The notes below the pieces were generated by a model. That model was not told where the DNA came from. It worked only from the letters and a program-made list of their open reading frames with translations, and ran no database searches. DNA of 64,000 nucleotides from Candidatus Woesearchaeota archaeon (GTDB lineage Archaea > Nanobdellota > Nanobdellia > Woesearchaeales > GW2011-AR9), in assembly GCA_041665465.1 (NCBI GenBank), contig JBAYIU010000001.1:1081733-1145732 (forward strand), given 5' to 3'. Of this stretch, positions 28,452 to 55,986 are shown in pieces; the first letter of the stretch is position 1; each line of letters opens with the position of its first letter. The translations under genes and the position numbers were made by a program.

Positions 28452-29531
28452 ATGAAACGAATCACTTTAGCTAGTTTATTGTTGGGAGCTGCTCTTAGTT
28501 TGGGCGGATGTCATGAAGATACTCCGCAAGAGCAGATTGCAGATAAATTATCTCGTTCTCCAAAAAGTTTTCTGTGTGCGGTAGAGGATCACGTTAATTC
28601 TACTGCTCCTGCATTGTCCGTGGCTTCAGTATTGCAAACCGTTCCGGTGCTTAGTCCCGTAGTTAAGAATGATCTTCCCAAGACTATTCCTTTTACTGCT
28701 AATAGTGCTCCTAGAAAACATCGCGCTAACCAAGTTAATGGTAACATATTAACTGTTTACTTTACTACTGATCATTCTAGCTTTAACTCAAACGATACTG
28801 CTGATTTGGAAACCTATCTTCAAAGTTTACCTAATGGAACCCATTTGTTGGTAGAAGGTTATGCTGATCGAAGAGGTACTGATGAACATAACGCCTTGCT
28901 TAGTCAGCAAAGAGCTCAAGCTGTATCTGATTACGCTAAGAGATTTAATCCTACTTTGGAAACTGAACTTTATTCTTTTGGTGAGGGTCATCCGGCAGTG
29001 GAAGGTAAAGGGTTCAAGACTTATCAAGCTAATCGTCGAGTTAGAATTATCCCTCAAAAAAGTGAAGGAGTGATCACTACTGGACTAAGTACTTTAAAAC
29101 CATCTGATTATTATCTATTAGACCGAACCGGCTCAATGAAGGATATTCAATGGAATAGAGTTTCTAAGTGGAATGAAGTTCAATCTTATCAATTTCCAAA
29201 AGGGGCTAGTCTTTACACTTTTACTACTAATAATGTAACTAAAGGATGCACTGGTGAAGATTTAAATCAACTTACTCCTGATGGAGAGACTCCTTTGTTT
29301 GTGTCTTTATACTCTTTGTTAGATGAGATGAAAGAAGGTAGATCTGTAACTGTGCTAACTGATGGGATTAACAATGTAGGAGATGTTAGTGATAAGGACA
29401 TTATAGAAAGAGCTAGAGCAAAAAAGATTACTCTTTCCTTTCTAGCTCTAGTCCCTTGTGATAAGGACAGATTAACTTATCTGGCGAAAGAAACCGGCGG
29501 AGATACTTACTTGCCGATTGAGAAAGAATAA
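28452..29531 (+). CDS. Lipoprotein with an OmpA-like (peptidoglycan-associated) domain and a von Willebrand factor A domain
   Basis: Lipobox LSLGGC. VEGYADRRGTDEHNALLSQQRAQAV is the OmpA-C signature. YYLLDRTGSM (MIDAS DxSGS) and VLTDGINN mark a vWA domain. Confidence 0.65.
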   Translation: MKRITLASLLLGAALSLGGCHEDTPQEQIADKLSRSPKSFLCAVEDHVNSTAPALSVASVLQTVPVLSPVVKNDLPKTIPFTANSAPRKHRANQVNGNILTVYFTTDHSSFNSNDTADLETYLQSLPNGTHLLVEGYADRRGTDEHNALLSQQRAQAVSDYAKRFNPTLETELYSFGEGHPAVEGKGFKTYQANRRVRIIPQKSEGVITTGLSTLKPSDYYLLDRTGSMKDIQWNRVSKWNEVQSYQFPKGASLYTFTTNNVTKGCTGEDLNQLTPDGETPLFVSLYSLLDEMKEGRSVTVLTDGINNVGDVSDKDIIERARAKKITLSFLALVPCDKDRLTYLAKETGGDTYLPIEKE

Positions 29532-29942: not shown

Positions 29943-31376
29943 ATGACTATTAAAGAAAAGTTTGAAGCGATAAGGGATTATCGCAGCAGTAAAAAAGTCC
30001 AGATTGATCGTTTCTTAGATCCAGCTTTGTTTCTCACTTTTACTAATGCTGCTAGTTTGTATGGGTTAGATACGGCTTTAAACTGGGTGGCAGAACATTC
30101 AGATAAGCATGAAGGATTGGCTATGCTGGGAACTTATGCTGTTCTTGGTACAGGAATATATGAATTAAATAAGCATGTTCTTATCCCGGTAGCGAAGAGA
30201 ATAAAGCAATATCATGAGATCCGTGCTTTAAGAGGAAAAGATGCTACTGTTCTTAGCTTTGGTAAATCTGGAGCTTCACTAGCAGCATTAGCTACTTTGT
30301 ACGTTGTAGCTGGATTTAATCTTACCCTTAATGATTTCTACTGGGATGGAGATAGAGTAATTGATGCTTTTGCTCGTCATAAAAAAGCAGAACAAACCAT
30401 TGAAGAGGCTCAAGCTATTGATGTTACTCCTTTATCCTTAGAAGAAAGAGTTACTCTTGTGAATGAAACCAATATTTTAGAGAATAAAACATCTCTTGCT
30501 TCCTCTTCTGAGATTAAAGTAGAAAGTCCAACCGAGATTGGTAATTCTAACAAATATTCTACTAAAGGACGTTATTTAAGAACTCATCGCTGGGATAAAA
30601 TAAACCGAGCGGTAGAACAAAAATATGGGATTGAAGAAGGTCTTCTCTCCGGATTACAGATGAGAGAGAGTTATGGTAATCCGTTAGAACTTAATTCTGG
30701 AGATGATGGTGGAGCAGGATTGATGATGTTCCAACCCGGAACGGCCAAAGTATATGGTCTTAAAGTTTATGATGATGCTGGAGCTACGGGAAGAGATCGT
30801 AATCATGGAAGAAAACTTATCAAGTTAGTTAAAGATAATAATTATGATTATGAAGCTCTTGCTTCTATTGATGAAAGATTTGATGTACTTAAGAGTGCAG
30901 ATGCAGCAGGCAGATATCTTAGAGAGTTGTATGATAAATATGGTTCATGGGACAGCGCTTTATCTGCTTATAATCGAGGAACTCCGGCAACTAATCCTAA
31001 ATCTACTCGCCATGTTAAAACTACTCGAGAATATCAGCGATATTATCTTGAACATAATTCTGCAGGGGGAGAAAAGGTTGATGAAACCGTTTTGACTCGT
31101 CTTCGGCAAGATAGATTACCGGAATATCGATTCGTTAGAACAAATGAATTGGGACAAGCGGTTTATATGTACCGTGTTGAAGCTGGAGATAATGCCACAG
31201 TTATCGCTGAAACCTTTAATCGTTGGGATGGGAAACATGGAAGCAGATATCAAGACGTTGATTATACTCATATCGTTAATAGAGATAGAAAATATGTGGG
31301 ACACAGATTACATCCTGAGCAGTATGTTTACGTTTTAGCTGAACCTCTAGCTAAATCTAAACTTAAGAAGAAATAG
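29943..31376 (+). CDS. Membrane-anchored lytic transglycosylase (SLT domain) with a C-terminal LysM-like module
   Basis: Two N-terminal TM segments. QMRESYGNP...GGAGLMMFQPGTA...AYNRG is the SLT family signature with the catalytic Glu. The C-terminus YRVEAGDNATVIAETFN is LysM-like. Confidence 0.65.
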   Translation: MTIKEKFEAIRDYRSSKKVQIDRFLDPALFLTFTNAASLYGLDTALNWVAEHSDKHEGLAMLGTYAVLGTGIYELNKHVLIPVAKRIKQYHEIRALRGKDATVLSFGKSGASLAALATLYVVAGFNLTLNDFYWDGDRVIDAFARHKKAEQTIEEAQAIDVTPLSLEERVTLVNETNILENKTSLASSSEIKVESPTEIGNSNKYSTKGRYLRTHRWDKINRAVEQKYGIEEGLLSGLQMRESYGNPLELNSGDDGGAGLMMFQPGTAKVYGLKVYDDAGATGRDRNHGRKLIKLVKDNNYDYEALASIDERFDVLKSADAAGRYLRELYDKYGSWDSALSAYNRGTPATNPKSTRHVKTTREYQRYYLEHNSAGGEKVDETVLTRLRQDRLPEYRFVRTNELGQAVYMYRVEAGDNATVIAETFNRWDGKHGSRYQDVDYTHIVNRDRKYVGHRLHPEQYVYVLAEPLAKSKLKKK

Positions 31377-32610
31377 TTATTTTCTTTACTTTTTCTTTCA
31401 GATATTTATCCTTAAGATGGTGAGTTAGGTTATCTTTTAGTTTAGGACGTTCTACGTTGATCTTTGCATAAATTTTCCCCTTCTCTTCAAATACTTGTTT
31501 GTGTTCTTTCTTGAAATGAGTCACGTGTTCTTTTAATGCCAAAGGTGGTCCAACTCTTATTTCGAAACTGGGAAGCTCATTTCTCTCTAAAATGAAATAA
31601 AAAAAGGAGTTATTTTTTTTATTCCATTCCCATCCAGATTTTTTAACCTTAAACTTAATTAACTTCTGTTCTATGAATTCAAATGCTTTCAGTAACTGTG
31701 CTCCAACAATATCTATTTTCCCGTTTAAGGGTTGAACTTCTAAATAAACTAAGTGTGTTTTTGATCGTTTAGTTTCTTTTTTCAACTCTTCTATATTTAA
31801 GTTTTCTTTCTGGAAGAATTTAGAAGAAGGATGAGCAAGATATTCTTTAGCTAACCTCTTAAATTTACTTATCGTTTTATATCCTAAAGCAGCAGCAGCA
31901 TTACGGTTCTTATCTGTCGGATCTATCAAGATGATTGGTGATTGTTGTTTTGAAGAGTTTAAATGAAATAATACGTCCTTCTTGGGGTAGTGATTCTCTG
32001 GGTCGATTATCTCCTTGTCTTTCCATTTTAAACTTGCTTTTAATAATTTATTGAATCCTTTATAGTAGGCAATGAGTATCTCTAACCCGTACCCACTGAA
32101 TCCCCCAATGTACGATTCTGCTCCATAAATGCTGTTAGTCTTACAGAATTGTTTAGCTAAACGAACATCATCTTTTAAGGTTTTAGTATGCGCATTAACC
32201 CATCCTGAATGTAAATGAGATAAGTCTGTGATGTTTTTAGCTTGTTCTGGCTTGCTTACGTTTAAGCTGGGAACAACTTCAAACTCTATTCCCTTAAAAT
32301 TTAACCTAAAATAATCTCTGCTGCCGTGCAAGCGTTCAATTTTATCCTTAGGGAAAGCTTTCTTAAGATAAGTTTGTAACAGTTCTGAAAGTTGGTCCGA
32401 CTTTTCTGCAAAAGGAGAATAATCAAATTGAACAAATATATCTACATCATAATTTCCTGATAACCAAGTGTCTTTAGCTCCGCTTCCTCCCACTACTGCA
32501 CGAGCTTTTTTTAAGTGGGGATTAAGTAGTTTAAGAAATAGGGCAGTTACTTCTAAGAATCTCTTTCTTTCTTCTTTACTGGGTCGAATTTTATCAATAA
32601 TTTCTTGCAT
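31363..32610 (-). CDS. cca: tRNA nucleotidyltransferase (archaeal class I CCA-adding enzyme)
   Basis: GGSGAKDTWLSGNYDVDIFV nucleotidyltransferase motif. 415 aa. Confidence 0.8.
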   Translation of the reverse strand: MQEIIDKIRPSKEERKRFLEVTALFLKLLNPHLKKARAVVGGSGAKDTWLSGNYDVDIFVQFDYSPFAEKSDQLSELLQTYLKKAFPKDKIERLHGSRDYFRLNFKGIEFEVVPSLNVSKPEQAKNITDLSHLHSGWVNAHTKTLKDDVRLAKQFCKTNSIYGAESYIGGFSGYGLEILIAYYKGFNKLLKASLKWKDKEIIDPENHYPKKDVLFHLNSSKQQSPIILIDPTDKNRNAAAALGYKTISKFKRLAKEYLAHPSSKFFQKENLNIEELKKETKRSKTHLVYLEVQPLNGKIDIVGAQLLKAFEFIEQKLIKFKVKKSGWEWNKKNNSFFYFILERNELPSFEIRVGPPLALKEHVTHFKKEHKQVFEEKGKIYAKINVERPKLKDNLTHHLKDKYLKEKVKKITISS

Positions 32611-37317: not shown

Positions 37318-37656
37318 TTATAATTTCTTTATCTTAATCGCTAGCAACCCATGCTTCTTTATCTCTTCATCTGAATAATGCCACGATCCCTGAAGCAATT
37401 GCTCCTTAGACTTAAATCGGGGCCCCCAATACTCTAAAGGGGTAGAATTAACTAGGTCTTTGATCGAAGTATATTGATGTATTTCTAAGACCCTCACTTC
37501 TATCTTATCTTTATCTTCCGGACGTTTGGAAAACTCAATAATATCTCCTACCTTAACCTTCTGTCTTTTTTCATCATTCACTCGAGATTCTATTATCTTG
37601 AGACCGCTTGACATCTCATCGAAGGGTAATGGATCCAGATGCATTTCATGTTTCAT
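37318..37656 (-). CDS. ASCH-domain-like protein
   Basis: LKIIESRVNDEKRQKVKVGDIIEF resembles an ASCH beta-barrel. 112 aa. Confidence 0.45.
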   Translation of the reverse strand: MKHEMHLDPLPFDEMSSGLKIIESRVNDEKRQKVKVGDIIEFSKRPEDKDKIEVRVLEIHQYTSIKDLVNSTPLEYWGPRFKSKEQLLQGSWHYSDEEIKKHGLLAIKIKKL

Positions 37657-37712
37657 GAGATTTAGATGTTATTATCCCTTTTTAAAATTGTTGGAAATAT
37701 TAGAAGAAAAAG

Positions 37713-37816
37713 CGCCGACACCCGGAATTTCACAGCAATTACTTGCTATTTGAACCGGGAATCCCAGAGGGATCAGTTTTCAAGACTGACGCAATACCGG
37801 GTTATGCGATGTCGGC
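37713..37816 (-). tRNA. tRNA-Ser (anticodon UGA) with a probable approximately 22-nt non-canonical intron in the T-arm
   Basis: Reverse strand reads GCCGACA-TC-GCA-TAACCCGGTAT-TGC-G-TCAGT-CTTGAAA-ACTGA-TCCCTCTGGGATT-CCCGG-TTCAAAT-[AGCAAGTAATTGCTGTGAAATT]-CCGGG-TGTCGGC-G. It has a 7-bp acceptor, a 3-bp D-stem (class II), anticodon loop CTTGAAA, a long variable arm, a canonical TTCAAAT T-loop and discriminator G. It is the only GC-rich segment in an AT-rich intergenic region. Confidence 0.55.
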
Positions 37817-37913
37817 TTCAAACTTTGGGTATTTTGATATTTTATAAAGCTTTAGGTGACTTATCCAGTGCAGCACCAAAAACTATTTAAAACACCGAAA
37901 CCACGAGCTTATT

Positions 37914-39465: not shown

Positions 39466-41355
39466 CTACCTAATCCTAACTACCTCTAAGTTTCTGGGAG
39501 CAGTAGTCTCAATCTTATACTGCTTATGGATAGAACTTGCTAAATCTAAACATCGGCTAGATTCTCCGTGCAAGACCATAATCTTTCTAGGTTGAGGATT
39601 ACAGCGTTTAACGAAGTTCATCAACTGCTTACGATCAGAATGGTTAGTTATTTCTACTCTATGCACTTGCAGATTAATCTTTAACATTTGGCTCTTACCT
39701 TCATCACGCATCATTAATTCGCTTTCCCCGCTACGGATACGGTAACCTAAACTGCCCGGAGGTTGGTAACAAGAGAACATCAAAGAATGTTTACTTCCTT
39801 CCGCTAAGCCTTTAAGATATTCTACACTGGGACCACCAGCAAGCATACCGGAAGTAGCTAAGATTAAACATGGTCCTTCTTCTAACATAATCTGCTTTCT
39901 TTCTTTTTGTGACCCTACACTTTTAAAAATAGGTGACAAGAAAGGATTATTCTCAGTATGGAATATCTCTTGACGGATGTTACGGTTTAAGAATTCCGGA
40001 TAAGCAGTATGAATTGCGGTAACATCTTTAAGTAACCCATCGAGATATACCGGAGCAGCAGGAATTTTTCCTTCCCGCATTAATCTTTCCACGATAATCA
40101 TTACTTCTTGTGCTCTTCCTGACCCCAATACCGGCATTAAAACTTTTCCACCACGAATGAAAGTTTCTTGGATAACTTTAACCATATACTCATCAGCTTC
40201 TTGTTCGGACATGATATTATCTTTTCCGCCGTAAGTAGATTCCATGATCAAAGTTTCTGCTCGAGGAAACTGAGTATTGGCTGGTTCTAAGACGTTAGTT
40301 CTAGCGTACTTTAAATCACCGGTGTAAATTAGGTTGTGTAATCCATTTCCAATATTCAGATGAGAAATAGCACTACCTAACACGTGTCCGGCATTGTAAA
40401 GTGTTAACCTAATGTCTGGAGTGATATCAGTAACTTCATCGTATTCTAAACAGATAGTATGCAAGACCATTTCGCGAATTTCTTCGGTGTCGTACAATGA
40501 ATCTCGACCTTCACCTTTTTGGATCTTAACCATATCTAACTGTAACAAAGCCATGACATCACGAGTGGGTTCAGTACAATATACTGGTCCTTTATACCCA
40601 TACTTGAATAAATACGGGATTAATCCACAATGATCTAGGTGTGAATGAGAAACTATTACTGCATCTAGTTCGCTAATGTTTAGTTCTGGGGCATCTAGAT
40701 AAGGATAAGCTTCTGGTCCTTCTTCACTAGGATCTATTCCACAATCTAATAACACTCTGGATTCAGGTGTTTGTAACAATAAACAACTTCTTCCTACTTG
40801 TCTTCCAGCTCCTAAGAAAGAAACTCTGACCCATTCGTGTTTCTTTTCTCTTAACCATCCGTCATAAATACGATGTCCAGTCTTGTTTAAGAACTTTTTA
40901 CGATAATCAGCATGTTCGTATAAAACTGCACGTATACTTTCAATAAGTTTTGAACGTAAGGGAGGGATTCTTTTGATTAAAGGAACCCACATGGTTTTGC
41001 TGCGAATCTCTTTAAGATAATCTTTATCTTTGCTGATAATAATCCCTGGCTTATCAGCATGAATGATTACTTGTGATCGAGGGGGATCGAAAATCAATTC
41101 TTGTACTCCTGCTTCTTCAGGTAACATTTTCTTGATCTCTTTTTCTGCTTTTTCTAGTTCTAAGCATAATGAGGGATCTGGACGCAACTCAATTCTTTTC
41201 TTGAACTGTTGGACTGCTGCTTTAATGGTTCCTTCATTATCTAAGAAGTATTTCTTGTCTTTAGTATAAACAACAATGTTTGCTCCTTCGAATGCGCCGT
41301 CAGAAATCTTTCCTTCCGGTAGTGTTTTGATTATTTCTTTTAAAATGTCTGGCAT
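39466..41355 (-). CDS. aCPSF1: KH-domain beta-CASP metallo-beta-lactamase ribonuclease (archaeal termination factor FttA-like)
   Basis: N-terminal KH-like region plus HSHLDHCG (MBL motif 2) and a beta-CASP region. 629 aa. Adjacent to proteasome beta, as conserved in archaea. Confidence 0.85.
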   Translation of the reverse strand: MPDILKEIIKTLPEGKISDGAFEGANIVVYTKDKKYFLDNEGTIKAAVQQFKKRIELRPDPSLCLELEKAEKEIKKMLPEEAGVQELIFDPPRSQVIIHADKPGIIISKDKDYLKEIRSKTMWVPLIKRIPPLRSKLIESIRAVLYEHADYRKKFLNKTGHRIYDGWLREKKHEWVRVSFLGAGRQVGRSCLLLQTPESRVLLDCGIDPSEEGPEAYPYLDAPELNISELDAVIVSHSHLDHCGLIPYLFKYGYKGPVYCTEPTRDVMALLQLDMVKIQKGEGRDSLYDTEEIREMVLHTICLEYDEVTDITPDIRLTLYNAGHVLGSAISHLNIGNGLHNLIYTGDLKYARTNVLEPANTQFPRAETLIMESTYGGKDNIMSEQEADEYMVKVIQETFIRGGKVLMPVLGSGRAQEVMIIVERLMREGKIPAAPVYLDGLLKDVTAIHTAYPEFLNRNIRQEIFHTENNPFLSPIFKSVGSQKERKQIMLEEGPCLILATSGMLAGGPSVEYLKGLAEGSKHSLMFSCYQPPGSLGYRIRSGESELMMRDEGKSQMLKINLQVHRVEITNHSDRKQLMNFVKRCNPQPRKIMVLHGESSRCLDLASSIHKQYKIETTAPRNLEVVRIR

Positions 41356-41448: not shown

Positions 41449-42081
41449 TTAAAGTAAAGAATATTCTAATTCTTTTTGTAAGACCTTCTTAACTTCTTTC
41501 TCTGTAACTACAACCACATCTACTCCATTCCCAGAAGCGCTGTCTCGCTGAAGAGCAGTATTAACACATCTTACCGCTAACTTGACTCCTTCTGCTGCAG
41601 TCATATCTAACTTATACTGGGTTTCTAGTACACCTAAAGCGAAAACTGATCCTGATCCAGAAGAGACATAATCTCTAATTTTAGTTACGCTTCCGTCAGG
41701 GAATAAATCATAAAGGTATAATCCGCTATTATCTTTTCCACCTAATAAGAAATGAGCTATTCCTGGTAACATACTCATTTGACGAATGTTGGTGTAAAGT
41801 AATCCACCTAATAAGTTAGCCGCCTCTTTTACAGTAGGTTTCTTACTAGTACGAACTTCTTTTAGCTTTAATTCCGCTTTGATTAACTTGATTACGAGTT
41901 GGGCATCAGAAACATTTCCAGCGATGGTTACAGCCATTTCGTCAGAAATAATGTGCACTTTATCGGCTCTCTTGTCAACAATCATATTGCCGGCAGTGGC
42001 TCTTTTATCTGCTGCGAGGACAATTCCATCTTTGCAGACTAAACCTACAGTAGTAGTACCCGTTTTTAATTGTTCTTCCAT
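41449..42081 (-). CDS. psmB: Proteasome subunit beta
   Basis: TTTVGLVCKDGIVLAADKR, the Ntn-hydrolase mature N-terminus. Confidence 0.9.
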   Translation of the reverse strand: MEEQLKTGTTTVGLVCKDGIVLAADKRATAGNMIVDKRADKVHIISDEMAVTIAGNVSDAQLVIKLIKAELKLKEVRTSKKPTVKEAANLLGGLLYTNIRQMSMLPGIAHFLLGGKDNSGLYLYDLFPDGSVTKIRDYVSSGSGSVFALGVLETQYKLDMTAAEGVKLAVRCVNTALQRDSASGNGVDVVVVTEKEVKKVLQKELEYSLL

Positions 42082-44201: not shown

Positions 44202-44287
44202 AGCCCCTGACGAGAATTGCACTCGCGACCTTCTGATGCCTTTTTAATAATACAAGTCAGACGCAATAGCTACTATGCTACAGGGGC
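44202..44287 (-). ncRNA. tRNA-like structured RNA (candidate intron-containing tRNA with non-canonical D and T loops)
   Basis: GC-rich island in an AT-rich spacer. A 7-bp terminal helix GCCCCTG/CAGGGGC encloses about 85 nt. The reverse strand folds as acceptor–GCA/TGC D-stem–TCTGA...TCAGA anticodon-like stem with an approximately 13-nt insertion–5-nt variable loop–GCGAG/CTCGT T-like stem. The T-loop (TGCAATT) and D-loop are non-canonical. Confidence 0.3.
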
Positions 44288-54630: not shown

Positions 54631-55104
54631 TTAACAGCTTCTAATATTTTCTAAAATCGTTGCTTGTTCAGTACAAATTTGTTCTGCATCGTACAACACA
54701 ATCTTGGGAGTAATCTTAATTTGTTTAATCTTTCCACTAACTGATGAATCATAATTTAAGTGTCCTAAATAATTGCCTGCTTTAATCATCTTGGCATCAT
54801 TTAGTTCGTAAGATTCTGCTTTAACCTCACCAATAACACTAAACACTAATCCTTCTACTTTAATATTTACTCCATTTTCTAAAGTGAAAGCCACATCTTT
54901 CTTAGCTGAATCGTAACATAATTGTTCCTGTCCTCCAATTACTGCTAATTTTAATCCAATCTGTACCGGGCATTGGGCACTAGACTCTACTTCTGCTGCA
55001 CCAAAGTTCATCACTACTACCCCCACAGCTACCGCAAAAGAAATAAGTAATAAAGTGACCATTAAGGGAGTAACACCTTTCTTTTTATGTAAGTGATTAA
55101 CCAT
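54631..55104 (-). CDS. Putative archaeal type IV pilin-like protein (class III signal peptide)
   Basis: N-terminus KKKGVTPLMVTLLLISFAVAVGVVV is a basic stretch plus a hydrophobic helix, reminiscent of prepilin/archaellin signals. The rest is beta-rich. Confidence 0.4.
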   Translation of the reverse strand: MVNHLHKKKGVTPLMVTLLLISFAVAVGVVVMNFGAAEVESSAQCPVQIGLKLAVIGGQEQLCYDSAKKDVAFTLENGVNIKVEGLVFSVIGEVKAESYELNDAKMIKAGNYLGHLNYDSSVSGKIKQIKITPKIVLYDAEQICTEQATILENIRSC

Positions 55105-55558
55105 GTTTCCAGTAAGATTTTCCTTTACGTAAGATTTCTTTTACTCTGTGTATTGGTACAAAAATCTCTTTTCCTTCTTTCATCACGAATATCAAAAAAC
55201 CTTTTTCAATCTGTTTCAAATGTTTTACTTCATACAACAAATCTTTTTTTTGTAATCGGTCATGGAACTTAATATGGAATTCCTGTTTCTGTGGATGTTT
55301 ATGTATTGCGTGAAGAGCAGCACTTGTTTTTTGCTCTTCTAATTTTAATGGGTCAAATTCTTTTAAGATTAATCCCGAGGAGGCTAAGATAATTACCCCT
55401 GCAGCTAAACTAACTAAAGGGTTTTGAAGAAACCAGAGATTTCCTACTCCATCCCACAATCCTGCCCAGAATAAAACTATTCCTATCACTCCAATCATAG
55501 CCCAAAAGTAATGTCTTAAATTTTCTGTAGTTAATTGGATCATCTTCATAGCCTCCAA
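55097..55558 (-). CDS. Hypothetical 2-TM membrane protein, tandem paralog 1
   Basis: Shares with 55546-55986 a 2-TM N-terminus, the KEFDPL motif, H..HP.K..F.I.(Y/F)HD and a C-terminal E(I/V)F(V/I)P(I/L)HR(I/V).E(I/V)...GK(S/T)YW. Confidence 0.45.
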   Translation of the reverse strand: MEAMKMIQLTTENLRHYFWAMIGVIGIVLFWAGLWDGVGNLWFLQNPLVSLAAGVIILASSGLILKEFDPLKLEEQKTSAALHAIHKHPQKQEFHIKFHDRLQKKDLLYEVKHLKQIEKGFLIFVMKEGKEIFVPIHRVKEILRKGKSYWKHG

Positions 55559-55986
55559 TAGGTCTTTCCTTTATACATTACTTCGTTGATACGGTGTAAA
55601 GGGATGAACACTTCTTGTCCATTATTCTCATGTTCTACTACCAAACTTCCTCGTTCAACATGTTTTATCCGTTCTGCTCTAACTATAACATCTTTCTTTA
55701 GAATTTTGTCATGATAATGAATCTCAAATAGGTTCTTATGAGGGTGACCAGTGATAAAATGAGCTACACGATTGGTTGATTTATCTAAACTGCCTAGAGG
55801 ATCAAATTCTTTAAAGATTATCCCGGAAAAGGTAAGTATAGCAAATCCTACAAATAAAGCAACCCATTCATTTCCGATAGCAGGGATTTCGTACCATCCT
55901 TCCCATAACCCTTTCCATACCAGGATAACTCCTAGAGCTGCAGTCAAAGACCATAAAAAATGTTTATCTTGTTCTCTCAGTATCAT
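55546..55986 (-). CDS. Hypothetical 2-TM membrane protein, tandem paralog 2
   Basis: See the previous entry. Overlapping start and stop imply an operon with the pilin-like gene. Confidence 0.45.
   Translation of the reverse strand: MILREQDKHFLWSLTAALGVILVWKGLWEGWYEIPAIGNEWVALFVGFAILTFSGIIFKEFDPLGSLDKSTNRVAHFITGHPHKNLFEIHYHDKILKKDVIVRAERIKHVERGSLVVEHENNGQEVFIPLHRINEVMYKGKTYWRL

Follow-up and report, generated by a model that had tools for sequence, protein, structure and literature searches.

A tRNA-Ser(UGA) gene with an insertion in the T loop

The window analysed here (the whole 64-kb stretch of contig JBAYIU010000001.1, 64,000 nucleotides, numbered from its first letter) contains on its minus strand, at 37713–37816, a complete class II tRNA-Ser(UGA) gene with an insertion of 22 nucleotides (nt) in its T loop, which we read as an intron. 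From 37816 down to 37713 the gene runs GCCGACA-TC-GCA-TAACCCGGTAT-TGC-G-TCAGT-CTTGAAA-ACTGA-TCCCTCTGGGATT-CCCGG-TTCAAAT-(22 nt)-CCGGG-TGTCGGC-G. The parts listed in an earlier reading of this DNA made without database searches (the sequence-only reading) are all present: a 7 bp acceptor stem, a 3 bp D stem (to which a U·U is added), the anticodon loop CUUGAAA, a 13 nt variable arm, the T loop TTCAAAT, a discriminator G and, within the insertion of about 22 nt, an AGCAA/TTGCT hairpin. Archaeal serine identity is defined by a serine anticodon, a long variable arm and the discriminator G73; here these are the anticodon UGA (37780–37782, minus strand), the 13 nt variable arm, whose stem is CCC/GGG, and G73. 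The body of the precursor measures 104 nt and would be reduced to 82 nt by splicing, and the 3′ CCA is absent from the gene sequence. All 104 nt recur at 100% identity in one ENA contig and one JGI contig, which we count together with the window as three independent assemblies.

The Rfam tRNA family RF00005 matches exactly 37713–37816 on the minus strand over the full length of the model (positions 1–71) with 43.9 bits (cut-off 29 bits; E = 2.6 × 10−8) in a local search of 351 nt run with lax speed filters, and its alignment puts a 23 nt insertion in the T loop. The match reappears when the entire window is scanned with Rfam at permissive settings (E = 4.7 × 10−6). The whole-window scan at gathering thresholds returns no match because the speed filters lose it, and ARAGORN with default settings reports no tRNA anywhere in the 64 kb. 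Nor does ARAGORN return anything for the unspliced gene sequence with its intron and pseudogene options, since it models only introns of the anticodon loop. Once the 22 nt are deleted in silico, it reports tRNA-Ser(tga). The sequence-only reading had named silence of ARAGORN as an outcome that would speak against a tRNA at this locus. That silence is literally true and is explained by the intron; it is overturned by the call on the spliced form, by the RF00005 match and by the window-wide motif scan described below. The unspliced 104-mer has a minimum free energy (MFE) of −40.2 kcal/mol (z = −3.84), and its MFE structure is a cloverleaf with one extra hairpin in the T loop.

The gene is flanked by putative transcription signals. 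A TATA-like box, TTTATAAAA (37840–37848, minus strand), lies at −32 to −24 from the 5′ end of the tRNA and probably acts as its promoter; 102 related tRNA-Ser genes are likewise T-rich and then A-rich at −33 to −25. Directly 3′ of the discriminator, the T-rich tract CTTTTTCTTC (37703–37712, minus strand) resembles an archaeal terminator and is likely to act as one. Two plus-strand open reading frames (ORFs) from the ORF list (37526–37753 and 37666–37890) overlie the tRNA and its promoter. They had been dismissed as spurious, which is reasonable: on the identical public contigs neither is called as a gene.

Predicted splice sites and related genes

Splice sites were located with a bulge–helix–bulge (BHB) finder written for this analysis, which requires an outer helix, a central helix of 4 bp, two bulges of 3 nt and an inner helix. 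On the local sequence it returns TTCA.AA|TAGCAAGTAATTGCTG.TGAA.AT|T with the 5 bp T stem as the outer helix. Both strands of the whole window hold 6,694 BHB-like candidates, and only one of them, 37727–37748, yields upon removal an ARAGORN tRNA that spans the junction. The predicted intron, TAGCAAGTAATTGCTGTGAAAT (22 nt; 37727–37748, minus strand), accordingly falls between tRNA positions 59 and 60. Exon 1 (37749–37816, minus strand) comprises positions 1–59, that is the 5′ strand of the acceptor stem, the D arm, the anticodon arm, the 13 nt variable arm, the 5′ strand of the T stem (CCCGG) and TTCAAA. Exon 2 (37713–37726, minus strand) comprises positions 60–73, with T60, CCGGG, the acceptor strand TGTCGGC and G73, as seen in the sequence and in the ARAGORN call on the spliced form. 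The sequence-only reading was right to place a 22 nt insert in the T arm; its boundary at 60/61 gives way to 59/60 on the BHB geometry. Because of a repeated T, both boundaries yield the same mature sequence, with the predicted junction ...GGUUCAAA|UCCGGG...

The earlier reading had proposed to look for a BHB at the junctions, and one is present at 59/60. On the exon side, its central helix consists of T54 T55 C56 A57 (TTCA; 37751–37754, minus strand). This strand pairs with the TGAA at intron positions −6 to −3 (37729–37732, minus strand), as found by the BHB finder, in the constrained fold and in homologues. The 5′ bulge consists of A58, A59 and the first U of the intron (37748–37750, minus strand) and the 3′ bulge of A, U and U60 (37726–37728, minus strand). 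Archaeal EndA substrates are cleaved after the second nucleotide of the bulge, and the cuts are predicted after A59, between 37749 and 37748, and before U60, between 37727 and 37726. The inner part (37733–37747, minus strand) is a helix h′ formed by AGCAA (37743–37747) and TTGCT (37734–37738), closed by a GUAA tetraloop (37739–37742), with G37733 unpaired between this helix and the central one. The junction thus has the 3-4-3 arrangement with both outer and inner helices and is near-canonical, not strict, owing to the extra G. Folding the T arm under the BHB constraint costs 2.1 kcal/mol relative to its MFE. Among shuffled 22-mers, the 4 bp central helix arises in only 2.6%, and in only 0.16% is it joined by an inner helix of 4 bp or more. 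The spliced T arm, CCCGG-TTCAAAT-CCGGG, is the commonest T arm among intron-less relatives (21 genes).

Homologous tRNA-Ser genes lie near the gene for FttA/aCPSF1, a neighbour of the tRNA gene in the window (39466–41355, minus strand), in many of 18 related GTDB loci; default ARAGORN calls none of them. Their intron layouts were established by eye and by in-silico splicing. Automated multi-intron splicing resolved genes with a single T-loop intron only; relaxed 37/38 introns and D-loop introns were parsed by eye. A 59/60 intron stands alone in a tRNA-Ser(GGA) gene (L010), together with a 37/38 insertion in a tRNA-Ser(CGA) gene (L014), together with a 37/38 intron in two tRNA-Ser(UGA) genes (L008 and L016) and together with both D-loop and 37/38 introns in a third (L012). 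No T-loop intron is present in the tRNA-Ser(UGA) genes of L013, L006, L009 and L011 or in the tRNA-Ser gene of L007. Two or three introns per tRNA-Ser(UGA) gene occur at L012 4100–4260 (minus strand), L008 7801–7968 and L033 4632–4797 (minus strand), all missed by ARAGORN.

A wider sample came from a metagenome scan with the conserved serine D arm, TCGCATAACCCGGTATTGCG, which returned 113 loci. The parser asked for acceptor pairing, T-stem pairing and TTCRA and did not require a BHB; among the 121 genes sorted in this way, 36 have a T-loop insertion, 77 have none and eight could not be parsed, so that T-loop introns occur in about 30% of the related tRNA-Ser genes sampled. A scan of the metagenomes with a 27-mer from the promoter flank gave no matches, and the collection evidently does not include the JGI sample from which L002 and L004 derive.

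Twenty-four distinct T-loop-intron genes other than tRNA-Ser(GCU) were aligned with the register fixed at 59/60. In this alignment pairing holds in 97.2% of the cells of the outer plus central helices. Shuffled alignments give 89.8 ± 1.0%, and none of them (0 of 500) reaches the observed value; registers slid from 59/60 give at most 67%. The central helix is 93.8% paired and the columns T54, T55 and C56 are invariant, while position 57, the sole variable exon column, forms AU in 16 genes, GC in three and GU in two and is unpaired in three. In 19 of the 24 genes the central helix is directly adjoined by an inner helix of 3 bp or more; with permuted partners the share is 37.5%. The introns themselves measure 21–150 nt and are unrelated in sequence.

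Another class of T-loop intron, of 39–130 nt, is seen in tRNA-Ser(GCU) genes (L031, L041, L056, L061, L078, L099, L103 and L131). These introns end in ...GAACA[AC]AT before the 3′ strand of the T stem and by eye would fit a 58/59 position, the central helix being GTTC/GAAC and the 3′ bulge enlarged. Long T-loop introns, of 87–89 nt in L040, L101, L115 and L132 and of 74–150 nt in L094 (7030–7273), L125 and L135, group into families in which parts of the internal sequence are conserved, such as TGCCTGCTACACTAGGCGAACGTACTCAAG... and ...GTCACGCCA..TTG.GAGGCGGAG.... A permissive Rfam scan of the multi-intron loci L115, L125 and L135 (T-loop introns of 74–87 nt) matched no family, not even tRNA.

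Genomic surroundings and DNA insertions at the 3′ end

Besides FttA, the gene for a proteasome beta subunit (41449–42081, minus strand) neighbours the tRNA gene, and elsewhere the window encodes aEF-1alpha, Rpo7 and the ribosomal proteins S24e, L7Ae, S28e and S10. The nearest relatives of FttA on GTDB contigs (one genome per species) belong to metagenome-assembled genomes of Candidatus Woesearchaeota, at 60–83% identity, and proteins identical to those of the window are found on a 1.12-Mb ENA metagenome contig. The G+C content of the window is 36.4%. NCBI taxonomy places the phylum Woesearchaeota within the DPANN kingdom Nanobdellati, and from these relationships the host is identified as a Woesearchaeota-like archaeon of the DPANN group.

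A class I (archaeal) CCA-adding enzyme (31363–32610, minus strand) is consistent with the two tRNA genes of the window, neither of which encodes CCA. The second of these is tRNA-Thr(UGU) (44202–44287, minus strand; Rfam 54.4 bits), with a canonical 13 nt intron at 37/38; it is missed by default ARAGORN and by the Rfam run at gathering thresholds and is detected by ARAGORN -i. Two adjacent small ORFs (55097–55558 and 55546–55986, both minus strand) match the MJ1316 domain (PF04457, 'RNA cyclic group end recognition') weakly (27.8 and 28.7 bits; cut-off 26.3) and may have a bearing on RNA with 2′,3′-cyclic-phosphate ends, of the kind that EndA leaves. Also encoded are an SLT lytic transglycosylase-domain protein (29943–31376, plus strand) and an OmpA-family domain protein (28452–29531, plus strand). 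Such domains target bacterial-type cell walls, and here they may reflect an episymbiotic lifestyle.

The 3′ end of the tRNA gene is a site of strain-specific DNA insertion. One contig of ENA ERZ27249449 (L003) carries the upstream gene for a 158-amino-acid protein and the complete intron-bearing tRNA, and departs from the window directly past the discriminator. A second contig of the same assembly (L001) consists of 394 nt of unrelated DNA, then CCGGGTGTCGGCG, then sequence with 100% identity to window positions 37725–34318. The insert is thus flanked at both junctions by CCGGGTGTCGGCG, a 13 bp direct repeat that resembles an att core and corresponds to tRNA positions 61–73 (37713–37725, minus strand), while the window and the JGI contig L002 represent the empty site. 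The repeat begins one base past the intron. Both ENA contigs stop inside the insert (L003 1–244 and L001 1–394), of which 230 nt and 394 nt are assembled at the two ends. Within these, no integrase was recognised. A Pfam scan of two ORF fragments of 37 amino acids gave sub-threshold zinc-ribbon and EGF matches only, a search with an extended 58-amino-acid insert query found no homologue, and two scans of viral contigs for the att junctions gave no matches. The idea that an ORF of L003 is the N-terminus of an integrase was dropped as unsupported. The 3′ fragments of L001 were also considered as 3′ halves of a split tRNA, which is ruled out by the complete tRNA at the other junction (L003), an attL/attR pattern.

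The foreign arm of L001 contains at 281–318 a second fragment, CCCGGGTGCTGGCG, that resembles a tRNA 3′ end. Its leader, GCGGACATGCAATTCAGTTG, is similar to the leader GCGGCGCATCAATTCAATTG before the real 3′ end, which suggests that the two may be tandem att remnants. A third allele appears at positions 1–28 of the contig L004 (JGI 3300037810; about window position 37825), in which the shared promoter ...atcaaaataccca is followed by ccaaatcgtGCCAGCATCGTATACTTGA. Behind this common promoter stands a tRNA-like 5′ end, GCCAGCATCGTATACTTGA, that differs from that of the window; its acceptor strand matches the TGCTGGC fragment in L001, and the contig ends there.

Duplicated 3′ ends also occur at related loci. 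A second direct copy of the gene's own 3′ end lies 82–262 nt downstream of 12 tRNA-Ser genes with an intron-less T arm (L026, L028, L047, L076, L082, L085, L096, L097, L112, L113, L114 and L116), and the copies start at tRNA positions 55–63. Among distinct genes with enough downstream sequence, 12 of the 52 whose T arm lacks an intron show such duplications and none of the 29 that carry a T-loop intron do (p = 0.0033 by Fisher's test, uncorrected for kinship). A hairpin segment of about 35 nt, TGAA(C)ATGCTCAAAAATCNNAGATTTTTGGCAC, is common to the 85 nt T-loop intron of a tRNA-Leu(CAG) gene (L109 8868–8892, minus strand) and to the downstream inserts of L113 (4521–4545, minus strand) and L114 (1956–1980, plus strand). 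The latter two inserts also hold inverted copies of the T loop and T stem (CCGGATTTGAAC). A 14 nt repeat 4.5 kb downstream in L033 was rejected as the mark of a mobile element; the interval spans housekeeping genes (AspRS/AsnRS-like and HIT).

Interpretation and known systems

We consider it highly probable (about 0.9) that the locus serves a Woesearchaeota-like DPANN archaeon as a functional gene for tRNA-Ser(UGA), with a 22 nt intron at 59/60 that is removed by protein-catalysed splicing. This reading is grounded in what the analysis shows directly: the tRNA itself, the insertion and the way it folds, the recurrence of this fold among relatives, and a host that is archaeal. It upholds the earlier proposal of a non-canonical T-arm intron in an archaeal tRNA-Ser(UGA), for which the BHB at 59/60, the homologues and the archaeal neighbours all argue.

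Transcription, cleavage and ligation would proceed along the established archaeal pathway, for which there is precedent. In the precursor, T54–A57 would pair with the TGAA of the intron and form the 4 bp central helix between the T stem and the AGCAA/UUGCU hairpin, so that the bulges AA|U and AU|U hold the cleavage sites. EndA is expected to cut both bulges, after A59 and before U60, and an RtcB-type ligase would then join the exons and restore the T arm CCCGG-UUCAAAU-CCGGG. The 3′ CCA would probably be added by the CCA-adding enzyme encoded at 31363–32610.

Several observations weigh against this interpretation. On its exon side the central helix is made of the near-invariant T loop, so that true covariation comes down to a single column, position 57, plus the inner helix. 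The one extra unpaired G beside the inner helix departs from a strict BHB, and the MFE structure of the isolated T arm favours a longer inner hairpin at the cost of the central helix. No EndA or RtcB Pfam domain is found among the approximately 67 ORFs of the window, which is uninformative since the window represents about 6% of a genome of roughly 1.1 Mb. Finally, with a view of 64 kb, a second copy of tRNA-Ser(UGA) may exist elsewhere in the genome.

Such a copy would be needed if the locus were a disabled pseudogene, in which the 22 nt, a random insertion or the scar of mobile-element activity, are never spliced out and tRNA-Ser(UGA) comes from another gene. The strain-level variants that make the locus an integration hot spot and the absence of an ARAGORN call also suit this explanation. 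Against it, all stems are intact, a promoter-like box and a terminator tract are present, and the BHB of the insertion is in the exact register that restores a T loop of 7 nt. Twenty-four distinct homologues have this architecture at the identical position with differing sequence, and the sequence of the gene itself is identical in three assemblies. A pseudogene is therefore very improbable.

Still less probable is that the insertion is kept in the mature RNA, which would then be a tRNA or tRNA-like RNA whose T loop is enlarged and bears a hairpin. The MFE fold, in which the cloverleaf is kept and the extra hairpin protrudes from the T loop, is compatible with this, but T54–A58, which form the conserved core between T loop and D loop, would be buried. 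Moreover, the homologous inserts vary from 21 to 150 nt, and the TGAA paired with the T loop is all that is conserved in their sequence. Turnover in length and sequence around a retained TGAA is expected of a splicing signal, not of a functional appendage, and many close relatives have no insertion at all. Group I introns are reported from some archaeal and Patescibacteria genes, but a self-splicing group I or II intron or a piece of a split or permuted tRNA is already refuted here by size and collinearity, as 22 nt is far below the hundreds of nucleotides of a ribozyme, no Rfam intron family matches at E ≤ 10, and the two exons follow each other without a break and in collinear order, on a single strand in the window and likewise in L002 and L003.

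Returning to the spliced intron, a further question is whether T-loop introns of Woesearchaeota (58/59 to 59/60) and site-specific DNA insertion at tRNA 3′ ends are evolutionarily coupled. A coupling is hinted at because the 13 bp repeat begins one base past the intron, the duplications at related loci start at positions 55–63, they are found in 12 of 52 against none of 29 genes, and a hairpin segment is shared between an intron and downstream inserts; we nevertheless hold it to be unlikely. The intron may break the recombination site in the T arm and thereby protect the gene, in line with the idea of Randau and Soll linking mobile elements to tRNA gene disruption, as cited in PMC4033280. Alternatively, small elements that duplicate positions ∼56–73 may be the raw material for T-loop introns, as in the model of Sugahara et al. 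(2012). The insertion data fit these published ideas, short of establishing the link itself.

The principle of the T-loop intron is already known, and the intron type is ordinary for DPANN archaea; the identity of the tRNA, the lineage and the frequency (∼30% of sampled serine genes) are new details. They extend the 59/60 position to tRNA-Ser (and tRNA-Leu) of Woesearchaeota, where T-loop introns are common. Kaneta et al. (2018) raised the concern of undetected tRNA genes earlier (PMC5829648). Both tRNA genes found in the 64 kb are invisible to default ARAGORN and a standard Rfam scan; without tools aware of non-canonical introns, genomes of Woesearchaeota and other DPANN archaea will look deficient in tRNA-Ser and probably in other tRNAs too. 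Use of positions 61–73 as an insertion target in a co-occurring strain offers a natural system for ideas on tRNA disruption and mobile elements. The main use of the locus is as an example of this annotation blind spot and as an entry to a variable tRNA locus associated with mobile elements.

Integrative elements that target tRNA genes use the 3′ part of the gene as their att core. Williams reportedly divided such elements in 2002 into sublocation classes. The present locus resembles them in the 13 bp repeat of positions 61–73 that flanks strain-specific DNA and in the starts at 55–63 of the repeats at related loci. In contrast, the repeat is short and no integrase is seen in the assembled ends of the insert, and membership in this group is not established. 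In Caldiarchaeum subterraneum, the tRNA-Thr(GGU) locus exists in several forms in the population, and intron gain through integration of mobile elements has been proposed (Sugahara et al., 2012; PMC3293823). There as here, inserted DNA parts a tRNA fragment from a tRNA gene in a natural population. However, the Caldiarchaeum insert of 1.8 kb has been sequenced and contains a recombinase gene, and its alleles differ in intron number, whereas here both alleles carry the identical intron and the insert is known from contig ends only.

Non-canonical and multiple tRNA introns are described for Thermoproteales/Crenarchaeota (Marck & Grosjean, 2003; Sugahara et al., 2008; reviewed in PMC4090602 and PMC4033280). 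The resemblance lies in protein-spliced BHB introns outside 37/38, including 59/60, and in the two or three introns that tRNA-Ser genes of relatives of the present organism can contain. Those archaea belong to another superphylum and use an (αβ)2 EndA with a crenarchaeal loop, and the tRNA-Ser of the window has the T-loop intron only, with none at 37/38. With canonical 37/38 introns, of which the tRNA-Thr(UGU) of the window is an example, the intron shares the 3-4-3 BHB logic and presumably the enzymes. It differs in its position and in its central helix, to which the T loop contributes and not the anticodon loop, and standard finders restricted to anticodon-loop introns miss the gene.

Lists of non-canonical intron positions in archaea include 59/60 (PMC4090602). 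Within DPANN, pre-tRNA-Cys(GCA) of ARMAN-2 (Candidatus Micrarchaeum) has a 13 nt 59/60 intron that is cleaved in vitro by the organism's own ε2 EndA, and its pre-tRNA-Pro(GGG) has introns at 53/54 and 59/60 (Fujishima et al., 2011; PMC3239211). Other DPANN archaea are reported to have an α4 EndA carrying an L3 loop, and the survey of Kaneta et al. (2018), which included a Woesearchaeote, linked this form to more tRNA gene disruption and took incomplete tRNA sets to point to undetected disrupted genes (PMC5829648). The present gene shares with ARMAN-2 the DPANN affiliation, a 59/60 T-loop intron and a BHB-type junction. It differs in being a class II tRNA-Ser of Woesearchaeota with a 22 nt intron, where ARMAN-2, of another phylum, has a tRNA-Cys with 13 nt, and its motif is near the strict hBHBh′ form, while the ARMAN-2 tRNA-Cys intron has a relaxed hBH.

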